Below, piece by piece: positions 6,278-64,000 of a DNA stretch of 64,000 nt (its first letter is position 1; the number at the start of each line of letters is the position of its first letter). Both the position numbers and the translations under genes were made by a program. The stretch comes from an uncultured Candidatus Binatia bacterium (GTDB lineage Bacteria > Desulfobacterota > Binatia > UBA9968 > JAJDTQ01): assembly GCA_965215605.1 (NCBI GenBank), contig OZ244070.1, positions 2,144,001 to 2,208,000 of the forward strand, given 5' to 3'. The notes beneath the pieces are model-generated. The model searched no databases, had not been told where the DNA came from, and saw nothing but the letters and a program-made list of their open reading frames with translations.

Positions 6278-6278
6278 G

Positions 6279-6434: not shown

Positions 6435-6457
6435 CTATTAAGGACTCAAGTACAAAC

Positions 6458-8270: not shown

Positions 8271-8317
8271 GGGAGGTCCACGATGGCTGGCGGCCTGACG
8301 CCCCGCACTCCGGCCGG

Positions 8318-9940: not shown

Positions 9941-10042
9941 GTCCGAGGCCCTCCCAAAGGGGTTGAGTAGACGGAAGTGTGCCTTGCCGGAAGGTTAACA
10001 CGGCGCCCTCCGGTCGTCCATGCGGAGTCTCGGAGGGTTCTG

Positions 10043-10858
10043 TCAGAAGCTCCCGGGCAGCGGTTTGGGCGTCCCGGGAAACAAGCCGTGCTTGTCGAGG
10101 AACTCGATCATGAAGCGGTTGAACAGCCAGGGCTGCTCGATCTGGCAGGCATGCCCGGCTCCGGGCAGCACCTTCATTTCGCAGCCCGGTATCCGCTCCT
10201 GCAGCGCGGCCGCGGTGGGATGGGAGTTGTCCTCGCTGCCGCTCAGGATGGTGACCGGACAGGAGATGTTGGAGTGGTGGCCGTCGGGTTCCGGCGCCTG
10301 CATCGCCCGGAACTGGCGGAGGATGGTATCGACGTCCGCGAAGTCGTTGCGTTCCGCGAAGAGGTTGGCGAAGAAGTGCGCCATCGGCGTCGTGCGAAAT
10401 GCAGGACTCAGATCCTCGAACGTATACGCCCAGCGATAGCCGATGCCCTTGGCGCCGTATGCGGCGATGCGCCGGGCGGCGAACGCTTTCTCGGGCGTGT
10501 AGCCCGTTCCCGACAGGATCATCGCCGCTGTCCGGTCGGGACGCCGGTGATACATGTACGGAGCCAGGGAAGATCCCACCGAACAGCCCACCAGGATGGC
10601 GGTCTCGCCCGGCAGCGCGTCGTCGATGGCTTCCCAGCACCCGTCCGCCATGTCGTCCATGGTCAGCCCCTCCGCGGCCTTGGGCGACCGGCCATACCCC
10701 GGAATGTCAATGGCGATGCACCGGTACCACGTTGACAGGTGCGCCATCTGGAAGATCCAGCACGACTGGTCCATGGGGTTGGGATGGACGAACGCCATCA
10801 CGGGGCCGGTGCGGCCCATGCGCTCGTAGTAGAGGGGTCCTGCGATGTGGTTGGCCAT
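10043..10858 (-). CDS. Alpha/beta hydrolase
   Basis: DIPGYGRS, GCSVG nucleophile elbow, GSED, GAGH. Confidence 0.85.
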   Translation of the reverse strand: MANHIAGPLYYERMGRTGPVMAFVHPNPMDQSCWIFQMAHLSTWYRCIAIDIPGYGRSPKAAEGLTMDDMADGCWEAIDDALPGETAILVGCSVGSSLAPYMYHRRPDRTAAMILSGTGYTPEKAFAARRIAAYGAKGIGYRWAYTFEDLSPAFRTTPMAHFFANLFAERNDFADVDTILRQFRAMQAPEPDGHHSNISCPVTILSGSEDNSHPTAAALQERIPGCEMKVLPGAGHACQIEQPWLFNRFMIEFLDKHGLFPGTPKPLPGSF

Positions 10859-10902
10859 GGTGAGTCTCCTTCTGTATGGTTCGTGCCTTGGTTGATTTTC
10901 AT

Positions 10903-10926
10903 TGACTAGTCATATAGCCTGGTCAT
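10903..10926 (+). promoter_or_regulatory. Putative TA operator/promoter
   Basis: Palindrome tgactagtca plus degenerate copy gcctggtca immediately before the antitoxin ATG. Confidence 0.45.
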
Positions 10927-11175
10927 ATGAGAGAAATCAATGCCTCGGAATTCAAGGCAAAATGCTTGGCCATCCTCGATGAAGTCGTACAGACAGGACA
11001 GGCGGTTACGATCCTGAAACGCGGCAAGCCGGTCGCCCAGCTTGTCCCGCCGGTCCCCAGGCAGCACCGCTATCCGCAGCATGCGCTCTTTGGAACGGTG
11101 GAGATACACGGAGACATCGTGGGGCCGGTCCTGGATGCCGACGTCTGGGAAGCCGAGGCGGGGAAGACGCGGTGA
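10927..11175 (+). CDS. Phd/YefM family antitoxin
   Basis: INASEFKAKCLAILDEV..VTILKRGKPVAQLVP. Confidence 0.9.
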   Translation: MREINASEFKAKCLAILDEVVQTGQAVTILKRGKPVAQLVPPVPRQHRYPQHALFGTVEIHGDIVGPVLDADVWEAEAGKTR

Positions 11176-11567
11176 AGGCGCTCCTCGATACACACATTCT
11201 GATTGACTGGATGGGCGCGGACCGCAGTCTTTCGTCGGAGCAGGAGGAAGTCCTTCGACAGGCCGGTCCCGAGAATCCGCTGTGGGTTTCCGACATCACC
11301 CTGTGGGAGATTGCCACGTTGTACAATCTCAAGCGGCTCTCGTTTCATTTGCCGCTGAGGGAGTGGCTCGAGGCCGCCACCGCGCCACCCTTGGTGCAGC
11401 GGGTCGGCATCTCACCCGCTGTTGCAGCGGTGGTGGCCGCCCTTCCCGCCGCCTTTCATCGGGACCCTGCCGACCGGGTCATCGTCGCCTCGGCGCAGCT
11501 TCTTGGCGCAACGGTGCTGACACGCGACGCGCGAATCATCCAATCCGGCGTCGTGCCGACGCTGTAG
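11172..11567 (+). CDS. vapC: VapC family PIN toxin
   Basis: LLDTH, SDITLWEIA, HRDPADRVIVA, TRD; GTGA overlap with antitoxin. Confidence 0.9.
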   Translation: MKALLDTHILIDWMGADRSLSSEQEEVLRQAGPENPLWVSDITLWEIATLYNLKRLSFHLPLREWLEAATAPPLVQRVGISPAVAAVVAALPAAFHRDPADRVIVASAQLLGATVLTRDARIIQSGVVPTL

Positions 11568-11601
11568 GCGCCTCATCGTTCAACGGGGCCGGCCATTCGC
11601 A

Positions 11602-15159: not shown

Positions 15160-15392
15160 GCCTCAGTGATGGCGTGTTGTTCGGCTCTGGGTGGGAGAGG
15201 CACTGTGCCATTCCGAACTTGATCAGGGCTGACACGTGGCATCTTCGTTCCATGGGTCAGGGTGTCAGCCCATCGGATGTATAACTCATTCAGTAAGGAA
15301 TAGAATACGTAACTCTGAGAATACGCCACGGTACGTAAGACGACTATCTCGCCGGTGCTGGTGCCGCTGAATTCCGGACGGGCCACCTTGTT
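15160..15392 (-). pseudogene. hsdS: Internal fragment of type I R-M specificity subunit
   Basis: KVARPEFSGTSTGEIVVLR...THGTKMPRVSPDQV..VPLPPRAEQHAI resembles an HsdS TRD end plus conserved helix; AT-richer DNA; no proper ends. Confidence 0.7.
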
Positions 15393-15589
15393 TCGCCCCA
15401 AAGGGCAAGCAGCATGGCGCCCTTCAAGACATAGCGCTCACGGTGCCGCGATTCTCCGAGGCGGTAGAGGAAGCGCTCTGCCGTGTATCGTTGCAACAGG
15501 GCCTCGAAGTTCTCGCCGGTTTTGCGGCTCCGATTCAGCAGCCTTGCACGTACCGACGCACCGACATTTCGGTATTCTCCAGGTGTCAT
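15344..15589 (-). pseudogene. abiEii: 3'-truncated AbiEii nucleotidyltransferase toxin
   Basis: NVGASVRARLLNRS...LLQRYTAERFLYRL...YVLKGAMLL; homology ends at about 15395; start overlaps abiEi stop. Confidence 0.82.
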
Positions 15590-16194
15590 AGCCGAAGCGC
15601 CTCCAGGTAGGGCCGTATGACAGTCCGCGCGCGGCACGCCTCAGCCGCGCGCACGATCTCATCCACCGTGGCTGCTCCCGAGCGCAAGACGTCGTGCAGC
15701 GCCTCCATCGCGATGTCCAGACCGAACTTGTTCCGATAGCGAAAGCAATCCACAACGGTCCGGGCGGGCGAGGTCATGAGAAACGGGACGCCCAAGGCCC
15801 AATGGCGGACCACGCCGTAGGTGAGCCCTGCACCTGAGAAACGGACGACTCGCATACGGGCGGGAGGATGCGCCGGTTTGCGCGCTTTCCGATCGAGGGC
15901 GACCCAAACTTCGTACGGCAACTGGGTGCCGATATCGTGAAAATGGAGCGCTGTGACCAGACACATGATGGCGTTCGGGACCGCCGCCGCCACCATGGCA
16001 AGGGTCTCGAGTTCGGTGGTTTCCACTTCCGAGAGTCTATAGAGGCCGTCCCCGAAGTTCTCCACGGACCCGTCGAACACGAGGTTTTGAAGACGACGAT
16101 GGGAAATGCCGAGGGGTGCGATGTCCCGAGGCCGGAAGAAAGCGCCGACTCCTGCTTCCCGCAATATGTCAAGAGTGTCGAGAGCGACGGGCAT
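15586..16194 (-). CDS. abiEi: Type IV TA antitoxin AbiEi family
   Basis: GLYRL winged-HTH end, CLVTALHFHDIGTQLP, TSPARTVVDCFRYRNKFGLDIAMEAL, IRPYLEAL. Confidence 0.88.
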   Translation of the reverse strand: MPVALDTLDILREAGVGAFFRPRDIAPLGISHRRLQNLVFDGSVENFGDGLYRLSEVETTELETLAMVAAAVPNAIMCLVTALHFHDIGTQLPYEVWVALDRKARKPAHPPARMRVVRFSGAGLTYGVVRHWALGVPFLMTSPARTVVDCFRYRNKFGLDIAMEALHDVLRSGAATVDEIVRAAEACRARTVIRPYLEALRL

Positions 16195-16207
16195 CCAACG
16201 ATGATAA

Positions 16208-16243
16208 CAAATGTCGGCACTTTAGTTCAAGTGCCGACATTTG
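16208..16243. promoter_or_regulatory. Perfect 15-bp inverted repeat (probable AbiEi operator or grdA terminator)
   Basis: caaatgtcggcactt-tagttc-aagtgccgacatttg, 13 bp upstream of the abiEi start. Confidence 0.65.
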
Positions 16244-16253
16244 ATGTCCTCGT

Positions 16254-16724
16254 CTACCCTGCCCGCATCCCCGCCAACGCCCCCACGATCGCGTCCGCTT
16301 CCAGCCCCATCTCCAGGATCTCGATGTTCTCGGCGTACTGGTCGGGGTCGATGGCGGCTTTCACGTTGGGCTCGAAGACGTGGTAGGCCGGGAGGCCGAG
16401 CTCCACGCCGGCGAGGGGGCCCGCGTAGGAGGGGTCGCCGGTCGTGACGGTCTCGAACTGGACCTGGCTGCTCTCGGTGGTGGGGGCGCCGAGCAGCACG
16501 ACGATGCCGTCCTTTCCGTATTCTTCAGCGAGTTCTTTTATTCGACCTTGATCCTCAAGGTCCATGGCCCCAGCGGCTGTTCAAACGAAGCACTGGGTGG
16601 CGGCGTACGCGACTTCGCCTCCCAGTCCCGCGATGGCCTGCTCGATGACCGGGGCGGGGACGCCGTCCCGCTCGCCGAGGATGATGAGCTTCTTGCCGTT
16701 GAGGGTGATGGGTTGTGCCGTCAT
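16254..16724 (-). CDS. grdA: Glycine/sarcosine/betaine reductase selenoprotein A (Sec at UGA 16583-16581)
   Basis: MTAQPITLNGKKLIILGERDGVP...TQCFV-U-TAAGAMDLEDQ...ETVTTGDPSYAGPLAGVELGL; CxxU motif; AAGGAG RBS; 156 aa. Confidence 0.93.
16544..16562 (-). promoter_or_regulatory. Bacterial SECIS-like hairpin
   Basis: gaccttga-GGA-tcaaggtc 8-bp perfect stem starting 18 nt after the UGA, with G at the loop start. Confidence 0.7.
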
Positions 16725-16807
16725 GAGAGTTCTCCTTGTTTGGTAGGGTCAAACCTTGAACTTGACTCTATTGGTGTAAAACTTCGTATGTTCGCGGGGG
16801 TTGAGAG

Positions 16808-18262
16808 CTACTGTCGCTTGTCGTTCCGCTCGATCAGCACCGACATGCCGTCCGTCAGCTCGGTCATCTGGCCGAGGAACAGGCTGGCGCGGGCCACCAG
16901 CATGCAGTTCCGGATGGCGCCCGCGGCCATCTCCCGGAGCGCGTGGGGCACGTACACGAAACCCGAGGCAATGTGCCCCTGGGTGGGGGCGTAGCCGCAC
17001 ACCCCCTTGGCGCGCGCAAAACCGGCGATGTCGCTCCGGTCGATCTCCTTGGCCATAGCCAGCATGGCGGCCATCATCTTGTAGTTCCGGGCGGCCACGT
17101 CGCCGGCCTTGGCGGACACCATGATGTCGGGGTTGTGCACCTCGGTCACCACCCGATCGAGCCGGTCGACGCCCCATTCTAGCCGCCGCAACGGCTCCAG
17201 GACAAGCTCCCGGAACTGCTTGTCGAGGGCGGCGCCGGCCTTGACGGGATGCCGTCCGACGGCTTGCAGGTTCACCACCGGGCTCTTGCCGTCGTCGCGG
17301 CCGATCCACACGGCCACCGCGGACAGCGCGTCTTCCAGCACCGGGATGCCTTGTTCGAGGTGGTATAGGGACTTCATCCCGAGCTTGGGAAGCGACCCGC
17401 CGCCCACCACGACCACGTTCTCGAACACGCCGCTGTCCACCAGCGAGGCACCGATGACCATGGCGGGAATGGGCGCGGCGCAGAAGTCCTTGATGTCGAT
17501 GCCGGTGCCGAGATCGCAGCCCGCGAACTCGGCGATGGCCTTGGCCATGTTGCCGCCGCCTCGCTGGTAGCGGTCGCCCACCGCCTCCTCCGAGCAGCTC
17601 AGCACCAGGTCGACGTCGCTCAGGTCAAGACCGTCTACGTGGTTCAGCAGCTCGTGCACGGACAGCGCGCCCGAAACCTTGCAGCAGAGGTTCTCCAGCA
17701 GAACTGTCGCCGAGAGCGCTTCGTCCTCGGAGTGGCCCGTCTTGACCACTCCCACGGGCGCGCCTTCGCCGCCGGCGAAGAGCGGCAGGGAATCGGCGGC
17801 CGCCAGTTCCTTGTCCAGTTGGGCGTCGTCCACAAGCGCCGGCGTGCGGGAGGCCAGCGGCGCCGTGAGCGGCGAGGCCGAGAGCGCGGGATGCATCTCC
17901 TCCCAGAACCGTTCCCGCAGCAGCACGTGCTTGAAGGGGTCCGCGCAGGCCAGCAGGGCGAGGAAACGCCGTTCCTCCATGATGTGCCCGAAAGGTGTGT
18001 CGGCGCCGTCGGCGTCGGCCAGCTTGTCGAACCAAGGCTGCTCCACTTCCCAGAGGCGGGCCGGCGCCTGGCTGCCGATGAACACCTGGTTGGGAAGGTA
18101 ACGGCACGCGTCGTCGTAACCCCACAGCCCCCGCGTCAGATCCGCCAGGAACTCCGGTTTGGCCTTGGCCTCCCGGAACGGCTTGGAGCCGTAACGGACC
18201 AGGCTCGGGGTGTGGGCGAGGGCGGTGGCGGCGCCCTTGATGACGGGTCGGTTCGTCGGCAT
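16808..18262 (-). CDS. grdC: Glycine/sarcosine/betaine reductase component C beta subunit
   Basis: PVIKGA..HTP, LLENLCCKVSG, CSEEAVGDRYQRGGGNMAKA, KLGM, EVHNPDI, GYAPTQGHI, SLFLGQMT. Confidence 0.9.
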   Translation of the reverse strand: MPTNRPVIKGAATALAHTPSLVRYGSKPFREAKAKPEFLADLTRGLWGYDDACRYLPNQVFIGSQAPARLWEVEQPWFDKLADADGADTPFGHIMEERRFLALLACADPFKHVLLRERFWEEMHPALSASPLTAPLASRTPALVDDAQLDKELAAADSLPLFAGGEGAPVGVVKTGHSEDEALSATVLLENLCCKVSGALSVHELLNHVDGLDLSDVDLVLSCSEEAVGDRYQRGGGNMAKAIAEFAGCDLGTGIDIKDFCAAPIPAMVIGASLVDSGVFENVVVVGGGSLPKLGMKSLYHLEQGIPVLEDALSAVAVWIGRDDGKSPVVNLQAVGRHPVKAGAALDKQFRELVLEPLRRLEWGVDRLDRVVTEVHNPDIMVSAKAGDVAARNYKMMAAMLAMAKEIDRSDIAGFARAKGVCGYAPTQGHIASGFVYVPHALREMAAGAIRNCMLVARASLFLGQMTELTDGMSVLIERNDKRQ

Positions 18263-54628: not shown

Positions 54629-55105
54629 ATGAAGAGCTCATTGCAAAGGCGGCCGGTGTGGAGACTGGCCCTGGTTGCCGTGCTGGCCGTGTCGTTCGTG
54701 ATAGCGATGAATTCAGGAACGCCGTTTGCGACCACCCAGATTTCCACCGACGCCGACGAGGGAGACAAGATGACCTTCACCGTCAACCTTGGCGTTGCTC
54801 CCAATGGCTATTCCATCCGTTATACCTTCAAGACCGAGGACGGCACCGCCGAAGCGGGAAAGGACTACACCGCGCGTACGGGAAAGGTGGTCTTCGCTTC
54901 GGGTGAGAGCACCAAGACGGTGGACGTGTGGACATCGACAGACCAGATTGAGGAGGATGACGAATACTTCACTTTGAAATTGTACAATATCGAAGCGAAA
55001 GGATTCTCGGCGGCGCACTCCGGGTGGGTCTCGTTCCGGAACCAGCTCTATGGCGTTCCGAATGAGCAGTCGCTTAACGGCGAGATCAAGGACGTTGCGC
55101 CGTGA
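54629..55105 (+). CDS. Secreted single Calx-beta domain protein
   Basis: Signal peptide; EGD.MTFTV.L, TEDGTAEAGKDY, GKVVFASGE.TKTV.V, D..EEDDEYFTLKL. Confidence 0.85.
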   Translation: MKSSLQRRPVWRLALVAVLAVSFVIAMNSGTPFATTQISTDADEGDKMTFTVNLGVAPNGYSIRYTFKTEDGTAEAGKDYTARTGKVVFASGESTKTVDVWTSTDQIEEDDEYFTLKLYNIEAKGFSAAHSGWVSFRNQLYGVPNEQSLNGEIKDVAP

Positions 55106-55253
55106 AATGGAGGCCAGGATCTGATCGGTTGGGGTTGAAACGGCCTTGAGCCGGTCGCCGCAACAGGCGACCCCGGGCACGGCGAAGAAGTTTCCCGGGT
55201 TCCCTGGGACCGCCGTCGCAACAGAAGACCTTAGCGAGCGAGGAGGGAGGATC

Positions 55254-55772
55254 ATGAGACAGGAATCGAACAGGAAAACCGAATGGACCGCATGGCGCGC
55301 CGCCCTTGCCGGCGTCGTACTGTTGGGGGGTGCGGCGCTCGTGGCGCCGCAAGCGGCCGACGCCGTGGACGCCGGCACAACCGAGGGCGACACGATGGAG
55401 TTCACCGTCGAACTCGGGGCTGCACCGAACGGCTGGGCGGTGCGCTACAAGTACAAGACGGAAGACGCCGCGGCCGTCAAGGGCGAGGATTACGAAGAGA
55501 CCACCGGCACCGTGACCTTCAACTCGGGGGTCAAGACCAAGAAGATCTCTGTGGACACGATTGACGACAGCGAGGAAGAAGACCCGGAAGTCTTCAAGCT
55601 CAAGCTCTATGACCAGGAGGTCAACGGGCTCTACCGCGACGTCACCGGATGGGTCACCCCGACGTCCAGCATCCGGTCCATGCCGCGCACGATGACGTTG
55701 AAGGGCCAGATCCAGGACAACGACCAAACGGTCAAGGCGGATTGCGGGAACGCGGGTCAGTATTGCCAGTGA
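55254..55772 (+). CDS. Secreted single Calx-beta domain protein (paralog)
   Basis: Signal peptide; EGDTMEFTV, TEDAAAVKGEDY, GTVTFNSG, DDSEEEDPEVFKLKL; C-terminal CGNAGQYC. Confidence 0.85.
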   Translation: MRQESNRKTEWTAWRAALAGVVLLGGAALVAPQAADAVDAGTTEGDTMEFTVELGAAPNGWAVRYKYKTEDAAAVKGEDYEETTGTVTFNSGVKTKKISVDTIDDSEEEDPEVFKLKLYDQEVNGLYRDVTGWVTPTSSIRSMPRTMTLKGQIQDNDQTVKADCGNAGQYCQ

Positions 55773-55805
55773 CCGGGGACCAGGGATCAAGTACAAGGGA
55801 GACAA

Positions 55806-56633
55806 GTGATGAATACCGATCGAACCTCAACCGGGCGCTTGGCGATTGCCCTTGCAGCGGTCGTGCTGGCCGCCGCCCTTGCCGCAGCCGGGCCCGCCCG
55901 CGCCCAGAACGCCCCTACATATGGCGACTGTGCTGATGCGTGGTACCAGAGCGACGCCTCCGATCATTGCCCGGCACGCGGCACCCAATTCTGGTTTGAC
56001 ACCCCGAACGGACAGTGCAGCGTCACGGCCAGGTGCAGGAAGTTGAATGGCGTGCCATCAACCCAGCAAACTGTCACCGGCGATCTGGATGACATGCGCG
56101 ATCTGGTGAGTTGCGACGGCAAGCTCAAAATCGGCTCTTGCCTCGACGCTACTCAACAAGCCGCCCTGGAGACAGCATGCAAGGATGCGTGGGATAACAG
56201 CGATGCCAGCCAGAGATGCGGTTCGTCCCGCGGATCCCACAGCGTGTCGACCTATCAAGGCGTGCAATGTCATGTCTCGACCTCCTGCGGGACCCCGGCG
56301 GTGTCGGCGTCCTTCTACGGGTCTACCGACACTGTGAAACAGCTCGATTACTGCAACAACGAGTTGTCCACCTCCTGCCCCACGGTCGAGAAATGCACGA
56401 GCGCATGGAATGCGAGTTCGGCCAAAGTTACCTGTAACTATTCCGGCGCCTTCAGCACCCAAGTCGGAGTGGATTCGGGACAGTGCTCCATAAAGACCCA
56501 TTGCGAAAGACGGGTTGACGATCCATTGGGGAAGACTGGGGGAGTCCTCGCAGTTGAGACCTCGTACAAGGGGGACCTGGGACAGGTGCAAAACCTCAAG
56601 AACTGCCATGGGACACTCAAGACATCCTGCTGA
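55806..56633 (+). CDS. Secreted Cys-rich protein, 3 x 6-Cys modules (paralog 1)
   Basis: Signal peptide ending ARA-Q; three CxxAWxxSxAxxxC...C..C...LxxCxxxLxxSC repeats. Confidence 0.85.
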   Translation: MMNTDRTSTGRLAIALAAVVLAAALAAAGPARAQNAPTYGDCADAWYQSDASDHCPARGTQFWFDTPNGQCSVTARCRKLNGVPSTQQTVTGDLDDMRDLVSCDGKLKIGSCLDATQQAALETACKDAWDNSDASQRCGSSRGSHSVSTYQGVQCHVSTSCGTPAVSASFYGSTDTVKQLDYCNNELSTSCPTVEKCTSAWNASSAKVTCNYSGAFSTQVGVDSGQCSIKTHCERRVDDPLGKTGGVLAVETSYKGDLGQVQNLKNCHGTLKTSC

Positions 56634-56771
56634 GGTCCCGGTTTCTCCCGGTTTCGCGGGTCGCATGACATCGATCGGGTCGCACGTCTTCGGTCGCATA
56701 TCCCGGAGCGGGAAAGCTCGCCATGACCGGTCGGATTGTCGATCGGTGACCGGGCAGAAAGGAAGGAAGCG

Positions 56772-57638
56772 ATGAAGACCGATGGAACCCAGACCGGGCT
56801 GCGGGCCTCTTCCGGATCGACCGGGCGCTTGGCGATTGCCCTTGCAGCGGTCGTGCTGGCCGCCGCCCTTGCCGCAGCCGGCCCCGCCCGCGCCCAGAAC
56901 GCCCAGGACGGCCCGACGCGGGCCGAGTGCCTTGACGCGTGGGACGAGAGCGACGCCTCCGGTTCCTGTCCCTATTCCAGCAACCAGTTCTGGATGACGG
57001 CTTCGAACGGAGAGTGCAGCGTCACGACCAGGTGCAGGAAGTCGAATGGCAGGGCATCAGGGATGCAAAATGTCACCGGCGATCTGGATGACATGCGCGA
57101 TCTGGTGAGTTGCGACGGCACGCTCAAAATCAGCTCTTGCCTCTCCGCTACTGAACAAGCCGCCCTGGCGACAGCATGCGAGGAGGCGTGGGATGACAGC
57201 GACGCCAGCCAGCAGTGCGGTTCGTCCTACGGATCCCACAGCGTGTCGATATCAAACCGGCAATGTCATGTCTCGACCTCCTGCGGGACCCTGGCGGTGG
57301 CAGCGTCCTTCTACGGATCGCCCGACGATGTGAAACAGCTCGATTACTGCAACAGCGAGTTGTCCACCTCTTGTCCCGCCCCCGTGACGGTCGAGAACTG
57401 CAAGAGCGCATGGAATGCGAGCGACGCCAGTAATACCTGCAACGTTACAGGATATGCCGATACCAGGCCGGTCGCGGTGGATTCGGGACAATGCACCATG
57501 AGGGCCAGGTGCAGAAGATGGAGTACGGTATTCCCCGGCAACCCGGAGATCTCCCCGCAGTACGGCGATTTCAGGGGGAGTGTGGAACAGGTGGAAGACC
57601 TCAAGAACTGCCATGGGGCGCTTAAGACCTCCTGCTGA
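56772..57638 (+). CDS. Secreted Cys-rich protein, 3 x 6-Cys modules (paralog 2)
   Basis: Same architecture; ATG after a purine-rich RBS. Confidence 0.85.
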   Translation: MKTDGTQTGLRASSGSTGRLAIALAAVVLAAALAAAGPARAQNAQDGPTRAECLDAWDESDASGSCPYSSNQFWMTASNGECSVTTRCRKSNGRASGMQNVTGDLDDMRDLVSCDGTLKISSCLSATEQAALATACEEAWDDSDASQQCGSSYGSHSVSISNRQCHVSTSCGTLAVAASFYGSPDDVKQLDYCNSELSTSCPAPVTVENCKSAWNASDASNTCNVTGYADTRPVAVDSGQCTMRARCRRWSTVFPGNPEISPQYGDFRGSVEQVEDLKNCHGALKTSC

Positions 57639-57688
57639 GGTCCCGGTTTCGCGGACCGGGCCCCCGCGCCCCGGAATGAGGAAAGGCC

Positions 57689-58531
57689 ATGAGACAGGAC
57701 TCGAACGGGAAAACCGCACAAACCGCATGGCGCGCCGCCCTTGCCGGCGTCGTGCTGGCCGCTGCCCTTGTCGCAGCCGGCCCCGCCCGCGCCCAGAACG
57801 CGCAGGACGGCCCGACGCGGGCCGAGTGCCTTGACGCGTGGGGCGAGAGCGACGCCTCCGCGCATTGCCCATTTTCCAGCAACCAGTTCTGGATGACGGC
57901 GTCGAACGGAGAGTGCAGCGTCACGACCAGGTGCCGGAAATCGGATGGCTGGGCATCGCATATGCAAACCGTCACCGGCGATCTGGATGACATGCGCGAT
58001 CTGGTGAGTTGCAACGGCGTGCTCAAAGTCAGCTCCTGCCTCTCCGCTGCCGAACAAACCGCTTTGGCGACAGCCTGCGAGGAGGCGTGGGACGACAGCG
58101 ATGCCAGCCAGAAATGCGGTTCGTCCTACGGATCCCACAGCGTGTCGATATCAGGCCAGCAGTGTCAGGTCTCGACCTCCTGCGGGACCCTGGCGGTGGC
58201 AGCGTCCTTCTACGGATCGCCCGACGATGTGAAACAGCTCGATTACTGCAACAGCGAGTTGTCCACCTCTTGCCCCATCCCCGTAACGCTCGAGAACTGC
58301 AAGAGCGCCTGGAATGCGAGCGATGCCAGCGATACCTGTAACGTTACAGGATATGCCGATACCAGGCCGGTCGCGGTGGATTCGGGACAATGCACCATGA
58401 GGGCCAGGTGCAGAAGATGGAGCCCACGGTGGGTCGGCGAGGTCTCTCCGGGGTATAGCGATTTCAAGGGGAGTGTCGAACAGGTGGAAGCCCTCAAGAA
58501 TTGCGACGGGCGCCTCAAGACATCCTGCTGA
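57689..58531 (+). CDS. Secreted Cys-rich protein, 3 x 6-Cys modules (paralog 3)
   Basis: Near-identical to paralog 2 over long tracts; leader shared with the Calx-beta gene at 55254. Confidence 0.85.
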   Translation: MRQDSNGKTAQTAWRAALAGVVLAAALVAAGPARAQNAQDGPTRAECLDAWGESDASAHCPFSSNQFWMTASNGECSVTTRCRKSDGWASHMQTVTGDLDDMRDLVSCNGVLKVSSCLSAAEQTALATACEEAWDDSDASQKCGSSYGSHSVSISGQQCQVSTSCGTLAVAASFYGSPDDVKQLDYCNSELSTSCPIPVTLENCKSAWNASDASDTCNVTGYADTRPVAVDSGQCTMRARCRRWSPRWVGEVSPGYSDFKGSVEQVEALKNCDGRLKTSC

Positions 58532-58604
58532 GTTCCCGGTTTCGCGGGTCGCATGACATCGATCCGGGCGCGGGGCCTCTTCGGCCCGGCGCCCCGGCGG
58601 CTTC

Positions 58605-59804
58605 CTACTTGCCCTGGAGTCCGGCGATGGGATCGAGCCTGGATGCCTGGTGGGCGGGCTGGAACCCGAAGAACAGGCCGACCGCCACCGCCGTGCCGAG
58701 GCCGCTGGCCACGGAGAGCCCCGAGATCAGGAAGTCCCAATCGGTGAAGCGGCAGATCGTCCAGGTTGCCGCCAGGCCGAGCGCCACGCCAAGCACGCCA
58801 CCGGCGACTGTCAGGATGACGGATTCGATGAGAAACTGGCTCCTTATGTCCCGTTGCCGCGCGCCCAGGGCCCGGCGGATGGCGATTTCCGCGCGCCGCT
58901 CGGCCACGGACACGAGCATGATGTTCATGATCCCGATCCCGCCGACGATCAGCGAGATGCTGCCCACCGCGCCCAGCAACAAGGTGAAAATGCCCATCTG
59001 CGCCTCCATCCGGGCGATCAGCTCCTTCGCGGTGACGATATCGACGCCGAGATCGGGCGCGCGCTCGCGGAAATAGGACCGGACGTCCTCCACCGCCGCC
59101 TCGTAATGGACGCCGACGCCGGATCGGGCGACGATGACCTCGATTCCGGGGTCGGGGGCGATCCGCTGCGCCGTGGTTATCGGGACGAATATGGATTTGT
59201 CCGCGTTCACCTGGAACGGCAGTGCATAGCTCTCCCTCTTTCTGTCCAGCACGCCCACAATGGTGAAGAGAACCTCATCGACCTCGATGAGCGCCCCCAG
59301 AAGGCGGTCCGCCCCCTCCGCGCGCATTTTCTCCGCGACTTCGGCGCCGATGACGCACCAGTATCTGTCGGTATCCAGGTTCGAAACGAACCGGCCCTCT
59401 TGCAGCGTCAGCTTGTTCACGCTCGCGAAGGATCGGGTGACGCCCTGAACCGCGCCCCGCCCGACCTCCCGGCCGGCGAAGCGGAACGTCCCGCGCCCCG
59501 ATATCCTGGGCGCCGCCTCGACGATCGACGGGACCACCGCCGCCAGTTGCAGGGCGTCCGGGAGGCCAATCACGGCCCTTCCACCAGCATCCGACTTGCG
59601 GATGACAACGATGTCGGTGCCGAGCGCCTCGAATTGCTTGCGGGCCTGCCCCTTGGCGATCTCGCCGAGCGAGACCATCGCAATGACCGAGGAGATGCCG
59701 ATCATGACGCCGACCAGGCCCAGCACCGTGCGCAGCCTCGCCCGGCGCAGGCTGTTGGCCGCCTCGCGGGCATTGGCCGCAATGACCTGGAAGGTTCTCG
59801 ACAT
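58605..59804 (-). CDS. MacB/FtsX-like ABC permease
   Basis: RTVLGLVGVMIGISSVIAMVSLG, GGIGIMNIMLVSVAERRAEIAIRRALGA, PAHQASRLDPI. Confidence 0.92.
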   Translation of the reverse strand: MSRTFQVIAANAREAANSLRRARLRTVLGLVGVMIGISSVIAMVSLGEIAKGQARKQFEALGTDIVVIRKSDAGGRAVIGLPDALQLAAVVPSIVEAAPRISGRGTFRFAGREVGRGAVQGVTRSFASVNKLTLQEGRFVSNLDTDRYWCVIGAEVAEKMRAEGADRLLGALIEVDEVLFTIVGVLDRKRESYALPFQVNADKSIFVPITTAQRIAPDPGIEVIVARSGVGVHYEAAVEDVRSYFRERAPDLGVDIVTAKELIARMEAQMGIFTLLLGAVGSISLIVGGIGIMNIMLVSVAERRAEIAIRRALGARQRDIRSQFLIESVILTVAGGVLGVALGLAATWTICRFTDWDFLISGLSVASGLGTAVAVGLFFGFQPAHQASRLDPIAGLQGK

Positions 59805-59818
59805 GCCGGACGCCCGCG

Positions 59819-60523
59819 TCACGCCCCGGACGCCGCCGCGGCGCCGGGCCCGGCTCCTGGCTCGAAGAGCCTGCCGTCGCGAATGCGCGTCCGCCGCGCG
59901 CACTGGTCTGCCACCGACGGGTCGTGCGTGATAATCAGGATCGTGATGCCGCGCTCCTCGTTCAGCCGCCGTAGCAGCGCCATCACCTCGCGGGCCGTGT
60001 CGATATCCAGCGCACCGGTCGGCTCGTCGGCGAGCAGCAGCGCCGGCTTGCCCACCAGCGCCCGGGCGATGGCGACCCTCTGTTTCTGCCCACCGGAAAG
60101 CTGGTCCGGCCGGTGGCCGGTCCGGTCCGCCATACCGACGCGCTCCAGTATCTCCTGCGCGCGGCGGCGCATTTCCAGCCGCCCGGCACCCCGATAGACC
60201 AGCGGCAGGCAGACATTCTCCAATGCGGTCAGTTGCGGCAGCAGGTGGAAGGACTGGAACACGAAACCGATATGCCGGTTCCGGAGCGCGGACAGCTCGT
60301 TGTCGCGGAGCCCGGAGACATCGCGCCCGTCGAGGACACAGGCGCCCGAGGTCGGGCGGTCCAACAGACCGATAATGTTCATGAGGGTTGTCTTGCCGCT
60401 GCCCGAAGGTCCCATGATCGACATCAGGTCACCCGCATCGACCTCCAGATCGACGCCCCGCAGAACCTCGGTCGTGACCGGCCCGACCCGATAGGATCTG
60501 CGGATGTCGGTCAGCCTCAGCAT
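59819..60523 (-). CDS. MacB/LolD-like ABC ATPase
   Basis: GPSGSGKT, IGFVFQSFHL, LSGGQKQR, ADEPTGALD. Confidence 0.95.
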   Translation of the reverse strand: MLRLTDIRRSYRVGPVTTEVLRGVDLEVDAGDLMSIMGPSGSGKTTLMNIIGLLDRPTSGACVLDGRDVSGLRDNELSALRNRHIGFVFQSFHLLPQLTALENVCLPLVYRGAGRLEMRRRAQEILERVGMADRTGHRPDQLSGGQKQRVAIARALVGKPALLLADEPTGALDIDTAREVMALLRRLNEERGITILIITHDPSVADQCARRTRIRDGRLFEPGAGPGAAAASGA

Positions 60524-60566
60524 CCCGCCCGGCGCCTCCCTTCGGCGCCCCGGTCCCTGCTCCGGA

Positions 60567-62333
60567 TCATCGGACGAGGACGACCTTGTCGCCAGGCGAA
60601 AGGCCCTTCACCACCTCGACCGAATCGAGCGTGGTGAGGCCGAGTTCGACCGCGCGCCGCTCCGCGCCGCCGCCGTCGGCGAGGACACGCAGCCAAGCCT
60701 TGCCGTTCCCCTGTTCCACTGCGCCGATCGGCACCATCAGGGCCGCCGGGCGGTGGTGGACGACGATCGTGACATAGGCCGACATGCCGACCCGCAGCCG
60801 GTCACGCGCCTCCGTTCCCAGCCTGTCCAGCGTGACGACGACCTCGAATTGCGGCGCGCCGCGCCGTCGCGTTCTGAGATCCGCCCTCGGTGAGACACGG
60901 GTCACGGCGCCCGCGATCTGCAGGCCGGGAAATCCGGGGCCGGTAATCCAGGCCTGCTGGCCGGCCTCGACCTTCCTCACGTCCACCTCGTCCACGCTGG
61001 TGACGACGGAGAGGCGCTCCAGGTCCGCGATGCTCAGCATCAACTCTCCCTGTCCCACCGGCCTGCCCTTCGTCAGGGGCCGGGCCCTCGGGCCCTCCGC
61101 CGCCATGACGACCCCGGCGATCGGCGCCCGGACCCGCGCCAGGTCCAGCTTTTCCTCATGCACGCGCAGGCGGTCCTCGGCCGTCCGGGCCTCCAGACGC
61201 GCCACCCGCCGCGCTTCTTCGCCGCCCTTTGCCTTCACCGCCTCCAGCTCCCGCCGGGCCTCCTCGATATCCAGGGCCCGGTTCTGCCGCTGCCGCTGCG
61301 CATCTTCTTGCTGCGAGGCGGGAACGAGCCCCTGCTCCAGAAGGAAGGCGGTCCTGTCGAGATGCCGCTCCGCATCGTCGAACGCAATCTTCGCCCGCCG
61401 CAAGGCTTGGCGGGCGCGCGCCATGTCGGCGCTGTTCTCCCATTCCTCGAGCTCGACAAGCCGGTCGTGCGCCTTGATATGCTCGACTTGGGCACGCCTG
61501 TGGTCCGCGGCGAGCTGGCCCGTGTCGAGAGCGACCAGCGGATCGCCCGCCGCCACCCGATCCCCGGGGGCGGCATGCAATGCGCTTACATGGCTTTCGA
61601 TCGGGCTGACGATCTCGGCGACGCGGCCCGGTGCCAGATGGCCCCTGAGCGCGATGGTGGACCGGAATTCGCGGGGCTGCACCGTCACGGCCGGCAGCGC
61701 GCCTGGACCGCCGGCCTCCTCTACTCCCGGGCCGGCGTCCAGCGCCGCAGCGGCGCTGAACAGATCCAACGGCCGGACATACCAGGCGCCGATGGCGAGA
61801 AACACCACCATGACGAACAGCATCGCCGCGCCGCGCGCCGTGCGCACGCGCTTCGTCATCGCCAAAAGCGCTTCATTCCGAGCCTCGAGGTCGCGATAGG
61901 CGCTCTGGAGCTCACCGAGCTGCGTTTCGATGACCGCCGCCTGGCGCAGCTCCGTCTCGCGCAGCTCACGGACTTCGGTGATGTCGGAGACGACAACGAT
62001 CACCGCCACCCGCTCCTCTCCCACCATGAGGCAGGAGGTTGTGACGGACAGCGAGCGATGCGCCTCGCCGACCCGGACCCGCGTGACGCGCCGCGCGATG
62101 TCCCCGCGTTCGGCAACGGCGTCGAGGACAATCTGGGTGAACTCGTCGAAACCCTCGAACGCGATGAAGATCTGCCCGAAGGAACGCCCGGGCGCCTTAT
62201 CGGGGTCGAGCCCGAACATCCGGCAGAACGCGGCGTTGGCCATCCTGACCGCCCCGTCGAAACCGATGACGATCACCCCGTCGGACAGGTTCTCCAGAAG
62301 CGTGTGGTAAATGTCGGGGTCGCGGTCGGTCAT
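60567..62333 (-). CDS. PAS domain-periplasmic adaptor (MacA/HlyD-like) fusion
   Basis: LLENLSDGVIVIGFDGAVRMAN..F..MFG...VVSDITE PAS; coiled coil; TM; MFP motifs VRAPIAGVV, VDEVDV, LRVGMSA, GLSPGD. Confidence 0.85.
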   Translation of the reverse strand: MTDRDPDIYHTLLENLSDGVIVIGFDGAVRMANAAFCRMFGLDPDKAPGRSFGQIFIAFEGFDEFTQIVLDAVAERGDIARRVTRVRVGEAHRSLSVTTSCLMVGEERVAVIVVVSDITEVRELRETELRQAAVIETQLGELQSAYRDLEARNEALLAMTKRVRTARGAAMLFVMVVFLAIGAWYVRPLDLFSAAAALDAGPGVEEAGGPGALPAVTVQPREFRSTIALRGHLAPGRVAEIVSPIESHVSALHAAPGDRVAAGDPLVALDTGQLAADHRRAQVEHIKAHDRLVELEEWENSADMARARQALRRAKIAFDDAERHLDRTAFLLEQGLVPASQQEDAQRQRQNRALDIEEARRELEAVKAKGGEEARRVARLEARTAEDRLRVHEEKLDLARVRAPIAGVVMAAEGPRARPLTKGRPVGQGELMLSIADLERLSVVTSVDEVDVRKVEAGQQAWITGPGFPGLQIAGAVTRVSPRADLRTRRRGAPQFEVVVTLDRLGTEARDRLRVGMSAYVTIVVHHRPAALMVPIGAVEQGNGKAWLRVLADGGGAERRAVELGLTTLDSVEVVKGLSPGDKVVLVR

Positions 62334-63859
62334 TGCGGCGCCGCCTCAAGCCGGACGTCCCAGCGGTCCAGCACGCGTCCGGTGGTCCGGTCGAGCCGCG
62401 TCAGCGCAGCGAGCCAGGAGAGGATGGCGTCCGCTTCGGCCTGTTCCGCCTGGACCAGCTCTTCCTCGGCCGACGCCACCTCGAAGGTGGACGACAGGCC
62501 CTGGCCGAATTTTGCCTCCTCCACCGCCAGGTTCTGCTCCGCCAGTACGCGCGCGTCGCGCGCCAGTTCGGTCAGGCGGAGGCCCACCTCGACATCGTTC
62601 AGCGCCTGGCGCAGCGCCGTGCCGATCGACTCGCGCAATTCGACGACGCTTCTCTCCGCCTTCTTCAGCGCGTTGCGGGCCCTCAAGCGTGCGAGCTCAG
62701 GCGTCCGGTCGTTCAGCGGAACAGTGGCGTCTAACCGCACCTCACTATCCGGCCGGCCAGTGTCGCTATGCATCCACCGGAAGCTGAGAGCAACATCCGG
62801 CAACAGGTTGTTGCGGGCTACCGTCAACGCGATCCTGGCGGTCTCGACCCCGAGCCCGGCCTGGAGATAATCGACGCGGTTTTGCAGTGCTTCTTCGAGC
62901 GTCGGCGCAACGGCGGCGTCCTGCTGCCCGGCCTTCAACTCCTCCAGCGGACGGATGCGGATCCGGCTGTCAAGCTCCAGAATATCGATCAGGGCAAATT
63001 GCGCCGCTTCCAGGCGGTTCCGCGCCCGGACCAGCGCCAATTCCCGGGTGGCGATCGCCGCCTCGGACCGCCCCGCTTCGCGCTCGGCCACGCGCCCCGC
63101 GCCGATCAGCGCGCGCGTCGCCTCAAGCTGTTCGCGGGCGCGCTGCAATGAAGCTTCGCCGATTTCCACTTGCCGCACCGCGCCGATCAGCGCGCGATAC
63201 GCCCCGATCACGGCGACGACCAGATCCGCCGCAGTCTGGCGGAAGGCGAGGATGTCGATCCGTTCTTTCAGCCGCGCCTGCCGCACCGTTGCACTGTCGA
63301 TATCGGCCCAAGCGCCTTTCAGCAATGGCTGGGAAAAGCTGAAGGTTTGCGAACCGGCATCGTCGAACTTCCTCGACAGCCTTTCGTCCCAGCCGAGCGC
63401 GAACGCGCCGCCGGTGGGAACGCGCAGGCTCATCCGAGCGCCGAAGCCCGCCTTGTCGTCTTGCCGGTCCCTGCTCGCGAAGGGGCCGACGGTAACCTGA
63501 GGACTCCAGCGCTCCTCGGCCACATCCAGCGAAAACCTCTGCACTTCCCGGTCGAGCCGGCTGTTGAGAAGCGGCCGGTTGCGCGCCAGCGCCAGCCCGA
63601 TCGCGTCGCGCAGCGTCAGGTCGCAAACACTCGCGGCGCAGCCAGGGGGATCGTCCGCCGTCGCGGGCGTCTGGGCGGCCGCGGGGACCAGTGCCAAAAA
63701 GCACAGAACCGAGACGATTGCGAGGAAAAGCCCCGTCAGTCCCGGCGATGAGGCAAATGCAGTCGAAGCCCGGACGCGGCCCGCCGCCCCCGGTTGCCCG
63801 GACGATCCAACCGGCCTTGCCCAAGCTGTCGTGCGACGAACCTCAACTCCGTCGATCAC
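62330..63859 (-). CDS. TolC family outer membrane protein
   Basis: LTLRDAIGLALARN, FSQPLLKG, LLPDV, E..KF..GLSSTFEV; start uncertain (GTG 63859, frame open to 63988). Confidence 0.88.
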   Translation of the reverse strand: MIDGVEVRRTTAWARPVGSSGQPGAAGRVRASTAFASSPGLTGLFLAIVSVLCFLALVPAAAQTPATADDPPGCAASVCDLTLRDAIGLALARNRPLLNSRLDREVQRFSLDVAEERWSPQVTVGPFASRDRQDDKAGFGARMSLRVPTGGAFALGWDERLSRKFDDAGSQTFSFSQPLLKGAWADIDSATVRQARLKERIDILAFRQTAADLVVAVIGAYRALIGAVRQVEIGEASLQRAREQLEATRALIGAGRVAEREAGRSEAAIATRELALVRARNRLEAAQFALIDILELDSRIRIRPLEELKAGQQDAAVAPTLEEALQNRVDYLQAGLGVETARIALTVARNNLLPDVALSFRWMHSDTGRPDSEVRLDATVPLNDRTPELARLRARNALKKAERSVVELRESIGTALRQALNDVEVGLRLTELARDARVLAEQNLAVEEAKFGQGLSSTFEVASAEEELVQAEQAEADAILSWLAALTRLDRTTGRVLDRWDVRLEAAPQ

Positions 63860-64000
63860 GTCCCCCTCTGCGAGCCTCCAGTGACAGGCGAGATCAGTTC
63901 CCCAGCATCCCGCCTCCAGCAAATACCCGATTTCAGCGGGGCATGTCAATGTCAGCCCAGATCGTGTGAAAACTCGACGTCCCATCAACGGAAGCGTTCG

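Follow-up and report, generated by a model that had tools for sequence, protein, structure and literature searches.

A gene block of about 9.5 kb in the window (the whole 64,000-nt stretch of DNA that was analysed) encodes an ATP-driven export pump of the outer membrane with a predicted cytoplasmic sensor domain, together with small secreted cysteine-rich and Calx-beta proteins. This combination is found again in many unrelated symbiont genomes, which makes the pump a candidate release route for host-like surface proteins. Comparison of sequences and gene neighbourhoods supports a functional coupling of the pump with the secreted proteins, and we lean towards reading the locus as a secretion module, self-contained and horizontally mobile, that exports 6-Cys (see below) and Calx-beta cargo. 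Open reading frames and Pfam/NCBIfam profile searches define nine genes, all lying where the original prediction had put them, and a repeat arm.

54629-55105, + strand: Calx-beta protein 1, 158 aa, secreted (Pfam Calx-beta E 1.8e-14; signal-peptide-like N-terminus)
55241-55781, no strand: left arm of an inverted repeat, 541 nt (repeat search)
55251-55772, + strand: Calx-beta protein 2, 173 aa, secreted (Pfam Calx-beta E 3.7e-13)
55806-56633, + strand: 6-Cys protein A, 275 aa, 18 Cys, signal peptide and three 6-Cys units (unit HMM)
56736-57638, + strand: 6-Cys protein B, 300 aa from a TTG start, 18 Cys (translation, Cys count, unit HMM)
57689-58531, + strand: 6-Cys protein C, 280 aa, 18 Cys (translation, Cys count, AF2 models)
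58605-59804, − strand: MacB-type permease, 399 aa from ATG (Pfam MacB_PCD and FtsX)
59819-60523, − strand: ABC ATPase, a separate polypeptide (Pfam ABC_tran)
60567-62333, − strand: PAS and HlyD adaptor, a membrane-fusion protein (PAS_4, HlyD_D23, HlyD_3, TIGR01730)
62330-63988, − strand: TolC-like outer-membrane factor, OEP (Pfam OEP E 1.8e-34, in two stretches)

The five co-oriented genes on the + strand (two for Calx-beta proteins, three for 18-Cys proteins) converge on the four contiguous genes of the − strand (tolC, PAS-adaptor, ABC ATPase, MacB-type permease), with 73 nt between the stop codons of the two sets (58531 and 58605) and a 4-nt overlap of the tolC stop and the adaptor start. 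The picture from which the original prediction started, an array of signal-peptide genes facing a compact tolC-(PAS-MFP)-ATPase-permease operon, is borne out by gene order, strands, profiles and Cys counts. Read by eye in the translations, all five + strand proteins begin with a basic stretch, a hydrophobic stretch of 12-20 residues and an A-x-A-type site (for example ...AAGPARA followed by QNA, and ...PQAADA followed by VDA). The window module consists of pump and cargo genes with no other gene, and every 6-Cys and small Calx-beta gene of the window's genome sits in it. As to gene starts, an ATG at 56769 is likelier than the TTG for 6-Cys protein B, the open frame of the permease extends to 59903, and the true start of the TolC-like factor is probably downstream of 63988, its homologues beginning to align at residue 74 or beyond (most at about 90-125).

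Judged by sequence, the pump is a MacB/MacA-type tripartite system. The permease combines an FtsX-type membrane domain with a large periplasmic domain inserted between its first two helices, as in the MacB type (MacB_PCD E 3.4e-30, residues 59-276; FtsX E 1.6e-20, residues 313-425), and among solved structures it is closest to MacB chains, matched at full length (5gko, E 9.3e-44 over residues 15-397; also 5lil and 5nik). The ATPase matches ABC_tran (E 3.8e-36) and the nucleotide-binding part of MacB in NF007826 (E 1e-78); it also resembles DevA (E 7.5e-61, below the model cut-off). The adaptor, whose best solved relative is MacA, scores 125 bits with TIGR01730 (cut-off 94.9) and matches HlyD_D23 and HlyD_3; its likeness to the DevB family (E 9.6e-16) is below cut-off. 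What sets it apart is an N-terminal PAS domain (about 61965-62309), recognised by PAS_4 (41.3 bits, cut-off 23.1, residues 13-123), PAS_8 (36.4, cut-off 21.8), PAS (31.7, cut-off 22.6) and TIGR00229 (45.3, cut-off 22.9), followed by a conserved coiled coil, a single membrane helix (about 61764-61835) and the MacA-like periplasmic part, an architecture kept in 16 of 16 aligned homologues. The topology would place the PAS domain in the cytoplasm. No invariant Cys or His occurs in it among these 16 homologues, so no cofactor can be assigned. A type I secretion system (HlyB-HlyD-TolC) was considered and rejected: the permease is of the FtsX/MacB type, the cargo carries N-terminal signal-peptide-like sequences, and the type_I_hlyD model reaches only 48.9 bits against a cut-off of 208.65.

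The 18 cysteines in each of proteins A, B and C belong to three copies of one new 75-residue domain with six cysteines (6-Cys), a regularity that the original prediction had missed. The unit HMM matches all three units of protein A at 82-111 bits. None of the three proteins matches Pfam or NCBIfam at E<=0.01, and the domain is not represented in Pfam; it is a sizeable uncharacterised secreted domain family, with 415 cluster representatives (50% identity) at E<=1e-3. Most members are single-domain secreted proteins made of a signal peptide and one unit of about 8 kDa; the highest load in one genome is 31 units, and proteins of 6 and 7 units occur with no pump within 8 kb in the alphaproteobacterial order described below. 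An SRCR identity was tried and rejected: aligning the 89-row alignment with 11 distinct SRCR repeats (hhalign) gave 21 columns at 30% probability, and matches of the 6-Cys HMM on SRCR proteins span profile positions 4-21 only. Calx-beta is the only Pfam family in the cargo.

Structure prediction suggests a probable relationship between the 6-Cys fold and half of a cyanovirin-N-type (CVNH) lectin. The AF2 model of unit 1 of protein C has a pLDDT of 92.2 (81 for the whole protein), and in a wide VIA-align search its top five structural matches are all CVNH (Z 6.0-4.2, rmsd 2.2-3.1 Å over 50-55 residues), with unrelated folds beginning at Z 3.5; these Z scores are moderate, values under 8 falling, by the tool's own guidance, in the range of common arrangements. 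Foldseek gives the unit matches at E >= 0.03 and TM 0.2-0.4. The best hit of a PDB profile search is likewise a CVNH protein (5k79, at a non-significant E of 0.2), with which the 6-Cys domain has in common a stretch of the L-x-N-x-[DN]-G-x-L type, and among the families listed, 0 of 89 members match the CVNH Pfam model at E<=10. CVNH is a duplicated, two-lobed domain of 100 residues; a 6-Cys unit differs in being a single module (about 55 residues) with an added N-terminal helix, in having three disulfides with the C-terminal Cys as last residue, and in showing no significant sequence match, and its sugar binding is putative. The lectin-like character first proposed for the cargo gains moderate support from the fold.

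The two Calx-beta proteins score 54.2 and 50.0 bits with PF03160 (cut-off 27). A third copy, absent from the original prediction, lies on the − strand past tolC, just outside the window (L006:1287-1763; 47.7 bits, Pfam E 1.8e-12); it is 92% identical to Calx-beta protein 2 over 173 aa (tblastn) and forms part of the inverted repeat. The right arm of this repeat corresponds to window positions 64233-64773, just past the window end; the two 541-nt arms are 95% complementary and 8451 nt apart (3241-3781 and 12233-12773 in L132, window position being L132 position + 52000). The 5' leaders of 6-Cys protein C and Calx-beta protein 2 are also alike (86% identity over 80 nt, direct repeat D6). Elsewhere, fusions unite the two cargo families in one protein (P0003, two genes in L107, and L089), including proteins with Calx-beta plus three 6-Cys units, and among the pump neighbours are several large Calx-beta proteins (789-1624 aa).

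The block moves horizontally, a property that had escaped the original prediction. Its DNA is 78-93% identical between genomes whose RpoB proteins are 58-59% identical, it is bracketed by the 541-nt inverted repeats, and a transposase fragment is present; Calx-beta protein 1 falls outside the DNA segment common to other genomes. When the window is compared with loci L088, L092 and L093, identity is 86-91% for the cargo DNA and 78-79% for the pump DNA, with the orientation flipped; pump and cargo have therefore had separate histories, yet are neighbours all the same.

Mobility could in itself account for neighbourhood, the genes being mere co-travellers on an island with no functional coupling. 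The repeats at both sides and the transposase fragment would fit this reading, as would the close kinship of many of the pump loci compared, but we consider it highly improbable given how the association behaves across genomes. The original prediction had set as its own refutation an exporter whose relatives stand apart from secreted repeat proteins; put to this test, the link held. Of 61 PAS-adaptor loci of full length, 39 have 6-Cys and/or Calx-beta genes within 10 kb (both families in 10, fusions in 2, 6-Cys alone in 11, Calx-beta alone in 16), although many of the 61 are close relatives and the genomes are not independent. Among such relatives, movement of the module as a block would by itself preserve adjacency. 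That Calx-beta alone is a frequent neighbour of the pump is a further feature not foreseen. The closest spacing between cargo and pump is often 50-150 nt, and an unbiased all-against-all clustering of the ORFs around 64 pump loci, up to 4 kb away, finds a cargo family in 36 of them and no other neighbour in more than four, overlapping shadow frames of cargo genes aside.

The two cargo families are thus the sole recurrent neighbours, in several gene orders: convergent with the pump in the window and L081-L086, co-directional downstream of it in L088 and L091-L093, and co-directional upstream in G019, L119, L124 and L137. Adjacency holds down to 37-45% adaptor identity (the cargo-linked loci range from 37% to 92%) and across varied cargo architectures, 6-Cys neighbours occurring in at least four well-supported clades of a quick tree. 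It also holds despite the separate DNA histories described above, and cargo stays beside the permease where the operon is split: in G422, the ABC and permease genes are followed directly by about 10 single-unit genes, tolC and adaptor being 50 kb off, and in G015 the permease adjoins a 6-Cys variant on another contig. Among 37 genomes of one alphaproteobacterial order, 13 have 6-Cys, 14 the pump, 12 both and 22 neither; a 6-Cys gene lies within 10 kb of 20 of 34 adaptor genes, and 48 of 83 6-Cys gene places are more than 10 kb from any pump. In the window's class, the pump is found in 8 of 9 genomes with 6-Cys, versus 17 of 401 overall. As the gene content recurs in other genomes, the association is more than chance.

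Known MacB-type systems offer close points of comparison. E. coli MacAB-TolC likewise joins a permease of the MacB fold, periplasmic domain included, to a MacA-type adaptor and a TolC-type channel. It differs in that the ATPase here is a separate gene (separate in Dev and Lol systems too, fused to the permease in E. coli MacB), in that the adaptor here has about 165 extra cytoplasmic residues (PAS and coiled coil), and in that cargo genes adjoin the pump, which would transport their products. MacB pumps are described as taking the Sec-exported, disulfide-bonded STII and the 10-kDa dispersin from the periplasm (PMC5985334), and STII, a small substrate of this kind, resembles the proposed cargo type, although the cargo units here exceed it in size (75 residues with three disulfides, and up to three or more units in a chain) and come from other families. 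Aat (AatPABCD of enteroaggregative E. coli, for dispersin) and CexPABC (for CexE) are likewise dedicated MacB-type tripartite pumps, each encoded on a mobile element alongside a Sec-dependent surface protein of small size (10 kDa) (PMC5985334). Identity with this Aat/Cex dispersin type was rejected, as the locus has neither an AatD-type acyltransferase nor dispersin-family cargo: the window module lacks an AatD-like (Lnt-type) gene, a LNT_N/CN_hydrolase (Lnt-type) gene following the pump in G019 only, and its cargo has no similarity to dispersin. To our knowledge, the Aat system has no adaptor with a PAS domain. DevBCA-HgdD of heterocyst-forming cyanobacteria also combines a separate ATPase with a MacB-type permease and an adaptor; we know of no PAS domain in DevB. 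The cytoplasmic N-terminus of DevB is described as controlling export (PMC5985334), which is a precedent for control via the adaptor N-terminus. We rate the locus a novel variant of MacB-type two-step protein secretion.

In the mechanism that we infer for transport through the pump, PAS gating, an extracellular role and lectin activity, the cargo would be made with Sec signal peptides, cross the inner membrane and undergo oxidation in the periplasm (the window's genome has a gene for a VKOR-type oxidase). The periplasmic domain of the permease would pick it up, and the separate ATPase would drive it out via the MacA-like adaptor and the TolC-like channel, as in the two-step export established for E. 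coli STII and, with Aat, for dispersin, the PAS domain and coiled coil of the adaptor probably tuning ATPase activity or pump assembly on an intracellular signal. Outside the cell, the most likely role would be sugar binding and calcium-dependent adhesion toward a host, probably a sponge, or its matrix.

Size bears on this mechanism. The substrate bound discussed for MacB is roughly 20 Å or 10 kDa (PMC5985334), which the large (789-1624 aa) Calx-beta neighbours, and folded Calx-beta domains in general, may exceed. Two secretins are encoded in the window's genome, so another outer-membrane, type II-like route is conceivable. The pump might carry a glycolipid, a peptide or a host antimicrobial, with 6-Cys and Calx-beta proteins acting in the same envelope or host-interface process, either in the periplasm or via a secretin, for example by binding the exported material. 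MacB-type pumps are described as exporting glycolipids (DevBCA), pyoverdine and antibiotics (PMC5985334), the folded 789-1624 aa neighbours are unlikely to fit through TolC, and 22 of the 61 pump loci have neither cargo family nearby. We nonetheless hold another substrate to be rather unlikely. Dev moves a glycolipid, but beside the 64 pump loci analysed here neither glycolipid nor small-molecule biosynthetic genes recur, only secreted proteins being found in more than four. In the alphaproteobacterial order, moreover, there are up to 6 pumps per genome, and a 6-Cys gene lies within 10 kb of most of them. Arrays of 9-10 single-unit 6-Cys genes also run in the pump's direction, and this pattern suits cargo better than accessory parts.

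Such diversified small secreted proteins with pumps of their own are a pattern of toxin-immunity loci too. FtsX-type ABC systems are encoded beside some Sec-dependent bacteriocins, and the pump could similarly serve self-protection, clearing the periplasm of envelope-harming lectin-like proteins or host factors. The ATPase does resemble bacteriocin-linked ABC ATPases (TIGR03608, E 7.8e-57, below cut-off), a likeness that is one among many. We regard this as improbable: profile searches detect no toxin-like family in the cargo, and Calx-beta and CVNH-like folds are binding modules. In a diderm with a TolC partner, clearing the periplasm would in any case be export physically, so that it differs mainly in purpose from the cargo export that we favour.

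Calx-beta (PF03160) is reported to be enriched in sponge-associated bacteria across phyla (PMC9531527, PMC11706023) and is a main domain of sponge aggregation factors (PMC5400394, PMC11670116). The available parts of these symbiont reports present the eukaryotic-like proteins as a domain enrichment, with neither a dedicated exporter, a 6-Cys domain nor a mobile module, and name no export route for such extracellular domains (PMC9531527, PMC11706023). A bolder version of cargo export, which we entertain tentatively and at somewhat less than even confidence, is that of a symbiosis-specific, horizontally spread, PAS-gated MacB-type pump dedicated to proteins of adhesion and lectin type that mimic the host, namely Calx-beta and CVNH-like 6-Cys proteins. 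If true, (i) the lineages exchanging the module would be distantly related (RpoB about 58%) but have a common host, (ii) the module would be the long-missing route by which sponge symbionts export such proteins and (iii) every paralogous pump would be matched to its own cargo set.

The locus documents that a block of secretion and cargo genes has passed between organisms whose RpoB proteins are about 58% identical. It also offers a concrete candidate export route, namely a compact four-gene pump that, along with a cargo unit of 8 kDa, is transferable to a laboratory host, and which would widen both the substrate range of MacB-type pumps and, via its PAS-bearing adaptor, their regulation.

The module consists of two convergent gene sets within the 64-kb window, which has a G+C content of ~66%.

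Genes at the locus
54.6-58.5 kb, + strand: five small genes, converging on the four-gene pump operon
64.0 to 58.6 kb, - strand: four-gene pump operon encoding, in that order, an OEP/TolC-like protein, an adaptor, an ABC ATPase and a permease

Small genes 1 and 2 each encode one Calx-beta domain, while genes 3-5 are assigned to no family by the same Pfam and NCBIfam scan, and in all five products the N-terminus has a basic stretch that gives way to a hydrophobic one and an A-x-A-like site (signal peptides were judged by eye from translations). These databases also identify a PAS domain at the N-terminus of the adaptor, followed by HlyD/MacA-type domains, and MacB_PCD and FtsX domains in the permease, and the solved structures nearest by sequence are MacA chains for the former and MacB chains, over the whole length of the permease, for the latter (5gko, E 9.3e-44). 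Gene positions, domain calls and signal-peptide-like N-termini all match the original prediction, whose inventory and arrangement of the locus are thus correct in all details. A promoter/terminator scan of the locus gave counts at or below shuffled expectation, and a GC-rich hairpin between the convergent gene sets was no better than shuffles (z -1.1). An 80-nt stretch (repeat D6), 86% identical between Calx-beta gene 2 (55243-55322) and the third of the 18-Cys genes, gene C (57678-57757), takes in the ribosome-binding region of each and the part that codes for its signal peptide, and the other two (A and B) have a common leader distinct from that of D6; judging from these sequences, leaders seem to have been shuffled among cargo genes.

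The three proteins that were assigned to no family are built from a single new repeated domain. Exactly 18 cysteines occur in each, six per unit in three units of 70-83 residues, and these 6-Cys units have the signature C-x2-A-W-x2-S-x-A-x3-C ... C-x-V-x3-C ... L-x-N-C-x-G-x-L-x2-3-C, the sixth cysteine usually being the last residue of the protein. An 11-unit profile run against 1.84 billion representatives retrieved 415 proteins at E≤1e-3, of which 41 reached E≤1e-10; their length is mostly 95-145 residues, which is consistent with a signal peptide and a single unit. No Pfam match covered the unit in any of the 32 hits scanned, any given Pfam family matched at most two of 89 aligned members, and ten clusters checked for names yielded only 'hypothetical protein'. 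All six cysteines are kept in 153 of 205 aligned units, and the joint absence of the last two in eight units (the fifth replaced, the sixth column empty) hints at a C5-C6 disulfide. The domain is greatly expanded in five genomes from one order, that of genome G407 (G423, G413, G426, G416 and G427, with 16-31 unit matches per genome), whose repertoire includes proteins of 6-7 units and single-unit genes in arrays of 9-10. In two other loci, L040 (genome G003, 2207-13873) and L043 (G007, 4521-11474), secreted proteins of ~200 aa have a distinct second 6-Cys region preceding the unit, terminating in a Y-C-C-K-D-x-G-D-L-C-N-[RK]-S-D stretch; the one such protein scanned against Pfam (L040:13295-13873) matched no family.

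In the confident AlphaFold2 model of the unit, built from an 89-row alignment (pLDDT 92.2, pTM 0.78), an N-terminal helix leads into five strands and then a short helix. A Foldseek search of the PDB returned no match at E≤0.001, most of its weak matches being cyanovirin-N entries, and in an independent structure search the top five matches were lectins of the CVNH family, the next fold being unrelated (Z 3.5).

CVNH matches to the unit model
1n02: Z 6.0, rmsd 2.9 Å over 55 residues
5c8o: Z 5.8
2jzj: Z 5.4
2l2f: Z 5.1
2yhh: Z 4.2

The best match in a PDB profile search was also a CVNH protein (5k79), with a non-significant E of 0.2, over the ...L-x-N-C-x-G-x-L region. The unit may therefore resemble, on moderate evidence, one lobe of a CVNH lectin, while by sequence the unit falls outside that family, and sugar binding is a prediction that we regard as rather doubtful. 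A motif-level match to animal SRCR domains shrank to a helix motif of 21 columns (probability 30%), and kinship with them was rejected. In a model of a whole 18-Cys protein (pLDDT 81, pTM 0.50), the three units are well formed and their relative placement is unreliable.

Does the pairing of pump and secreted proteins recur beyond the window? PAS-adaptor homologues were collected from the window's class, where the pump occurs in 17 of 401 genomes and 2 of 146 genera, and from GTDB species represented by one genome each (51 loci), the species-wide search being seeded with a 7-row alignment. With the window locus included and seven duplicates dropped, there were 64 pump loci, in which the association put forward in the original prediction holds: label-free clustering of ORFs within 4 kb of the pump returned Calx-beta/6-Cys as the single dominant neighbour family (36 of 64 loci), after which came clusters of overlapping shadow frames from these genes, and no other family occurred in more than four loci. 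A profile search extended to 10 kb, covering 61 loci with a full-length adaptor (short-match rows L112, L128 and L080 were excluded), found both families in 10, fusions in 2, 6-Cys only in 11, Calx-beta only in 16 and neither in 22, including one with virtually no flank (L087). In many loci, 50-150 nt separate the pump from its closest cargo gene. Calx-beta neighbours were called with a local profile seeded with Pfam-verified proteins, and six of ten small ones that were spot-checked exceeded the 27-bit Pfam cut-off (the others were L097 with 26.1, L067:7163-7741 with 21.7, L103 with 19.7 and L069:14028-14618 without a match). Against a link, two of the three pumps in genome G024 are among the 22 of 61 without a cargo neighbour, and no part of a pump lies within 8 kb of the six- and seven-unit proteins of G423. 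In genome G356, three paralogous genes flank a PAS-adaptor pump without a 6-Cys or Calx-beta neighbour, their products being PQQ-propeller proteins of ~650-690 aa that all contain a cytochrome c domain (L075:3809-7694 and 15254-17335).

Counts per genome speak for the link, although they are drawn from related, non-independent genomes, for which reason no p-value is given. In the window's class, eight of the nine genomes with clean 6-Cys matches (E≤1e-3) also have the pump, and among the 37 genomes of the order to which one alphaproteobacterial carrier belongs, the 6-Cys domain is present in 13, the pump in 14, both in 12 and neither in 22. In that order, a 6-Cys gene lies within 10 kb of 20 of 34 adaptor genes, and 35 of 83 6-Cys gene places are that close to an adaptor gene (the 48 that are farther count against the link), while chance would predict a few percent for genomes of 4-6 Mb with at most six pumps; the maximum per genome is six pumps and 31 units. 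The pump and the secreted proteins very probably function together.

This link is more than inherited synteny. Cargo genes are (i) convergent with the pump in the window, the same-genus genome G021 and L081-L086, (ii) co-directional and downstream in L088 and L091-L093 and (iii) co-directional and upstream in G019 (two single-unit genes), L119, L124 and L137 (nine single-unit genes), with adaptors 37%-92% identical to that of the window across these differently ordered loci. In a quick adaptor tree, 6-Cys neighbours fall in at least four well-supported clades, and a careful tree with 61 tips calls for nine changes in the 6-Cys-neighbour state and eight in the Calx-beta state. Between the window and L088, L092 and L093, DNA identity is 86-91% in the best-matching cargo segments and only 78-79% in the pump, with flipped orientation, which argues that cargo cassettes have been swapped and yet still adjoin the pump. 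In both of two split operons, cargo has remained beside the inner-membrane part: in G422, tolC and the adaptor stand alone and the ABC and permease genes are 50 kb off, directly upstream of ~ten single-unit genes, while in G015 the permease, on another contig, adjoins a divergent 6-Cys gene. Some proteins fuse a Calx-beta domain with three 6-Cys units (P0003, two genes in L107, and L089). In G019, an apolipoprotein N-acyltransferase (Lnt-type) gene begins 7 nt past the permease gene (L013:14422-15960), an arrangement reminiscent of the dispersin system with its Lnt-like AatD.

The block has been horizontally transferred across deep lineages. In four carriers the adaptor is 92, 92, 89 and 76% identical to that of the window, while RpoB is only 58-59% identical and the flanks, with a G+C of 0.52-0.69, have little or no DNA similarity to the window's genome, hence the transfer. 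In G021 (RpoB 91% identical), the block lies at a different site, its flank matching genome G000 at 3.82 Mb (96%). DNA similarity to other genomes spans 55241-63943 and, counted on past the window's end, 64210-64830, where it stops; an inverted repeat of 541 nt (95% complementary) encloses the 6-Cys genes and pump, each arm carries Calx-beta gene 2 in one copy, and in the interval from tolC to the outer arm there is a transposase fragment (DUF772). The window's genome has no 6-Cys or small Calx-beta gene outside this locus, where G+C is 0.61-0.62 over cargo genes and ~0.67 in the surroundings. Copies of Calx-beta gene 2 also flank the module in L081 (7611-8136 and 18005-18536, direct repeats) and L083 (7682-8091 and 16284-16814, inverted as in the window), and these copies may be linked to recombination or movement of the block. 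Beyond the module and an amidohydrolase gene lies a two-gene restriction/defence-like pair (L006:3071-9310, ~66.1-72.3 kb in window numbering), encoding a SNF2/ResIII helicase with a PLD-like domain (1101 aa) and an Eco57I-type methylase (968 aa). Upstream of the module in G021, a 511-aa protein (L012:3305-4840) has many tandem R-R-I-A-G-S-P-D repeats preceding a He_PIG/Big_9 Ig-like domain.

How might export work? MacB-type pumps do not pass substrates over the inner membrane but expel periplasmic substrates via the adaptor and TolC. The passages on such substrates in PMC5985334 list STII, which is Sec-exported and DsbA-oxidised, and dispersin (10 kDa, ~20 Å by 50 Å), a possible upper size bound. 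By analogy, a single 6-Cys unit (~8 kDa, three disulfides) would fit the known substrate size, and multi-unit chains might be threaded through the pump one unit at a time. Folded Calx-beta domains and neighbours of 789-1624 residues are a real difficulty for this export model, and we only slightly favour the view that the secreted proteins are the pump's cargo. The window's genome, which is 97% complete, has a VKOR-type oxidase gene, and a search for DsbB in it found none. As for the PAS domain, it is kept together with the coiled coil and membrane helix in all 16 aligned adaptor homologues, and the corresponding passage on the DevB adaptor describes a cytoplasmic N-terminus required for export (PMC5985334). 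These 16 homologues have no invariant Cys or His pointing to a cofactor, so the 'signal-gated' route of the original prediction stays a hypothesis, and regulation of the pump by the PAS domain is possible, if somewhat short of an even call.

All 51 carrier records are metagenome-assembled genomes, with titles including Alpha- and Gammaproteobacteria, Ca. Binatia, Ca. Poriferihabitaceae, Ca. Porisulfidus, Acidobacteria and Chloroflexi, among others. Two of the carrier names occur in sponge genome notes, the 'jk18x' naming scheme common to some records is that of Ircinia sponge bins in PMC9531527, and Binatota have been reported in sponges (PMC9999580). Going by these names and bin origins, which are those of relatives and not the window's own source, carriers would be host-associated, probably with sponges.

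The pump has the sequence-defined features of MacAB-TolC-type systems, and its mechanism class is already known. Compared with E. coli MacAB, the ATPase is separate, the adaptor has a PAS domain and cargo genes lie beside the pump. An Aat identity is ruled out by the absence of both an AatD-like gene and dispersin-like cargo, and a type I identity by the MacB-type permease and Sec-type cargo. Full-text literature searches found no description of a PAS-domain membrane fusion protein with MacB, papers on sponge eukaryotic-like proteins with TolC and on sponge symbionts with COG0577 had no bearing on it by title and abstract, and these searches gave no account of this pump/secreted-protein pairing (supplementary tables of sponge microbiomes may list these genes as enriched). 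As far as these searches show, what is new is (i) the adaptor architecture, (ii) the cargo families, (iii) the one-pump-one-cargo expansion and (iv) the mobility of the block across lineages.
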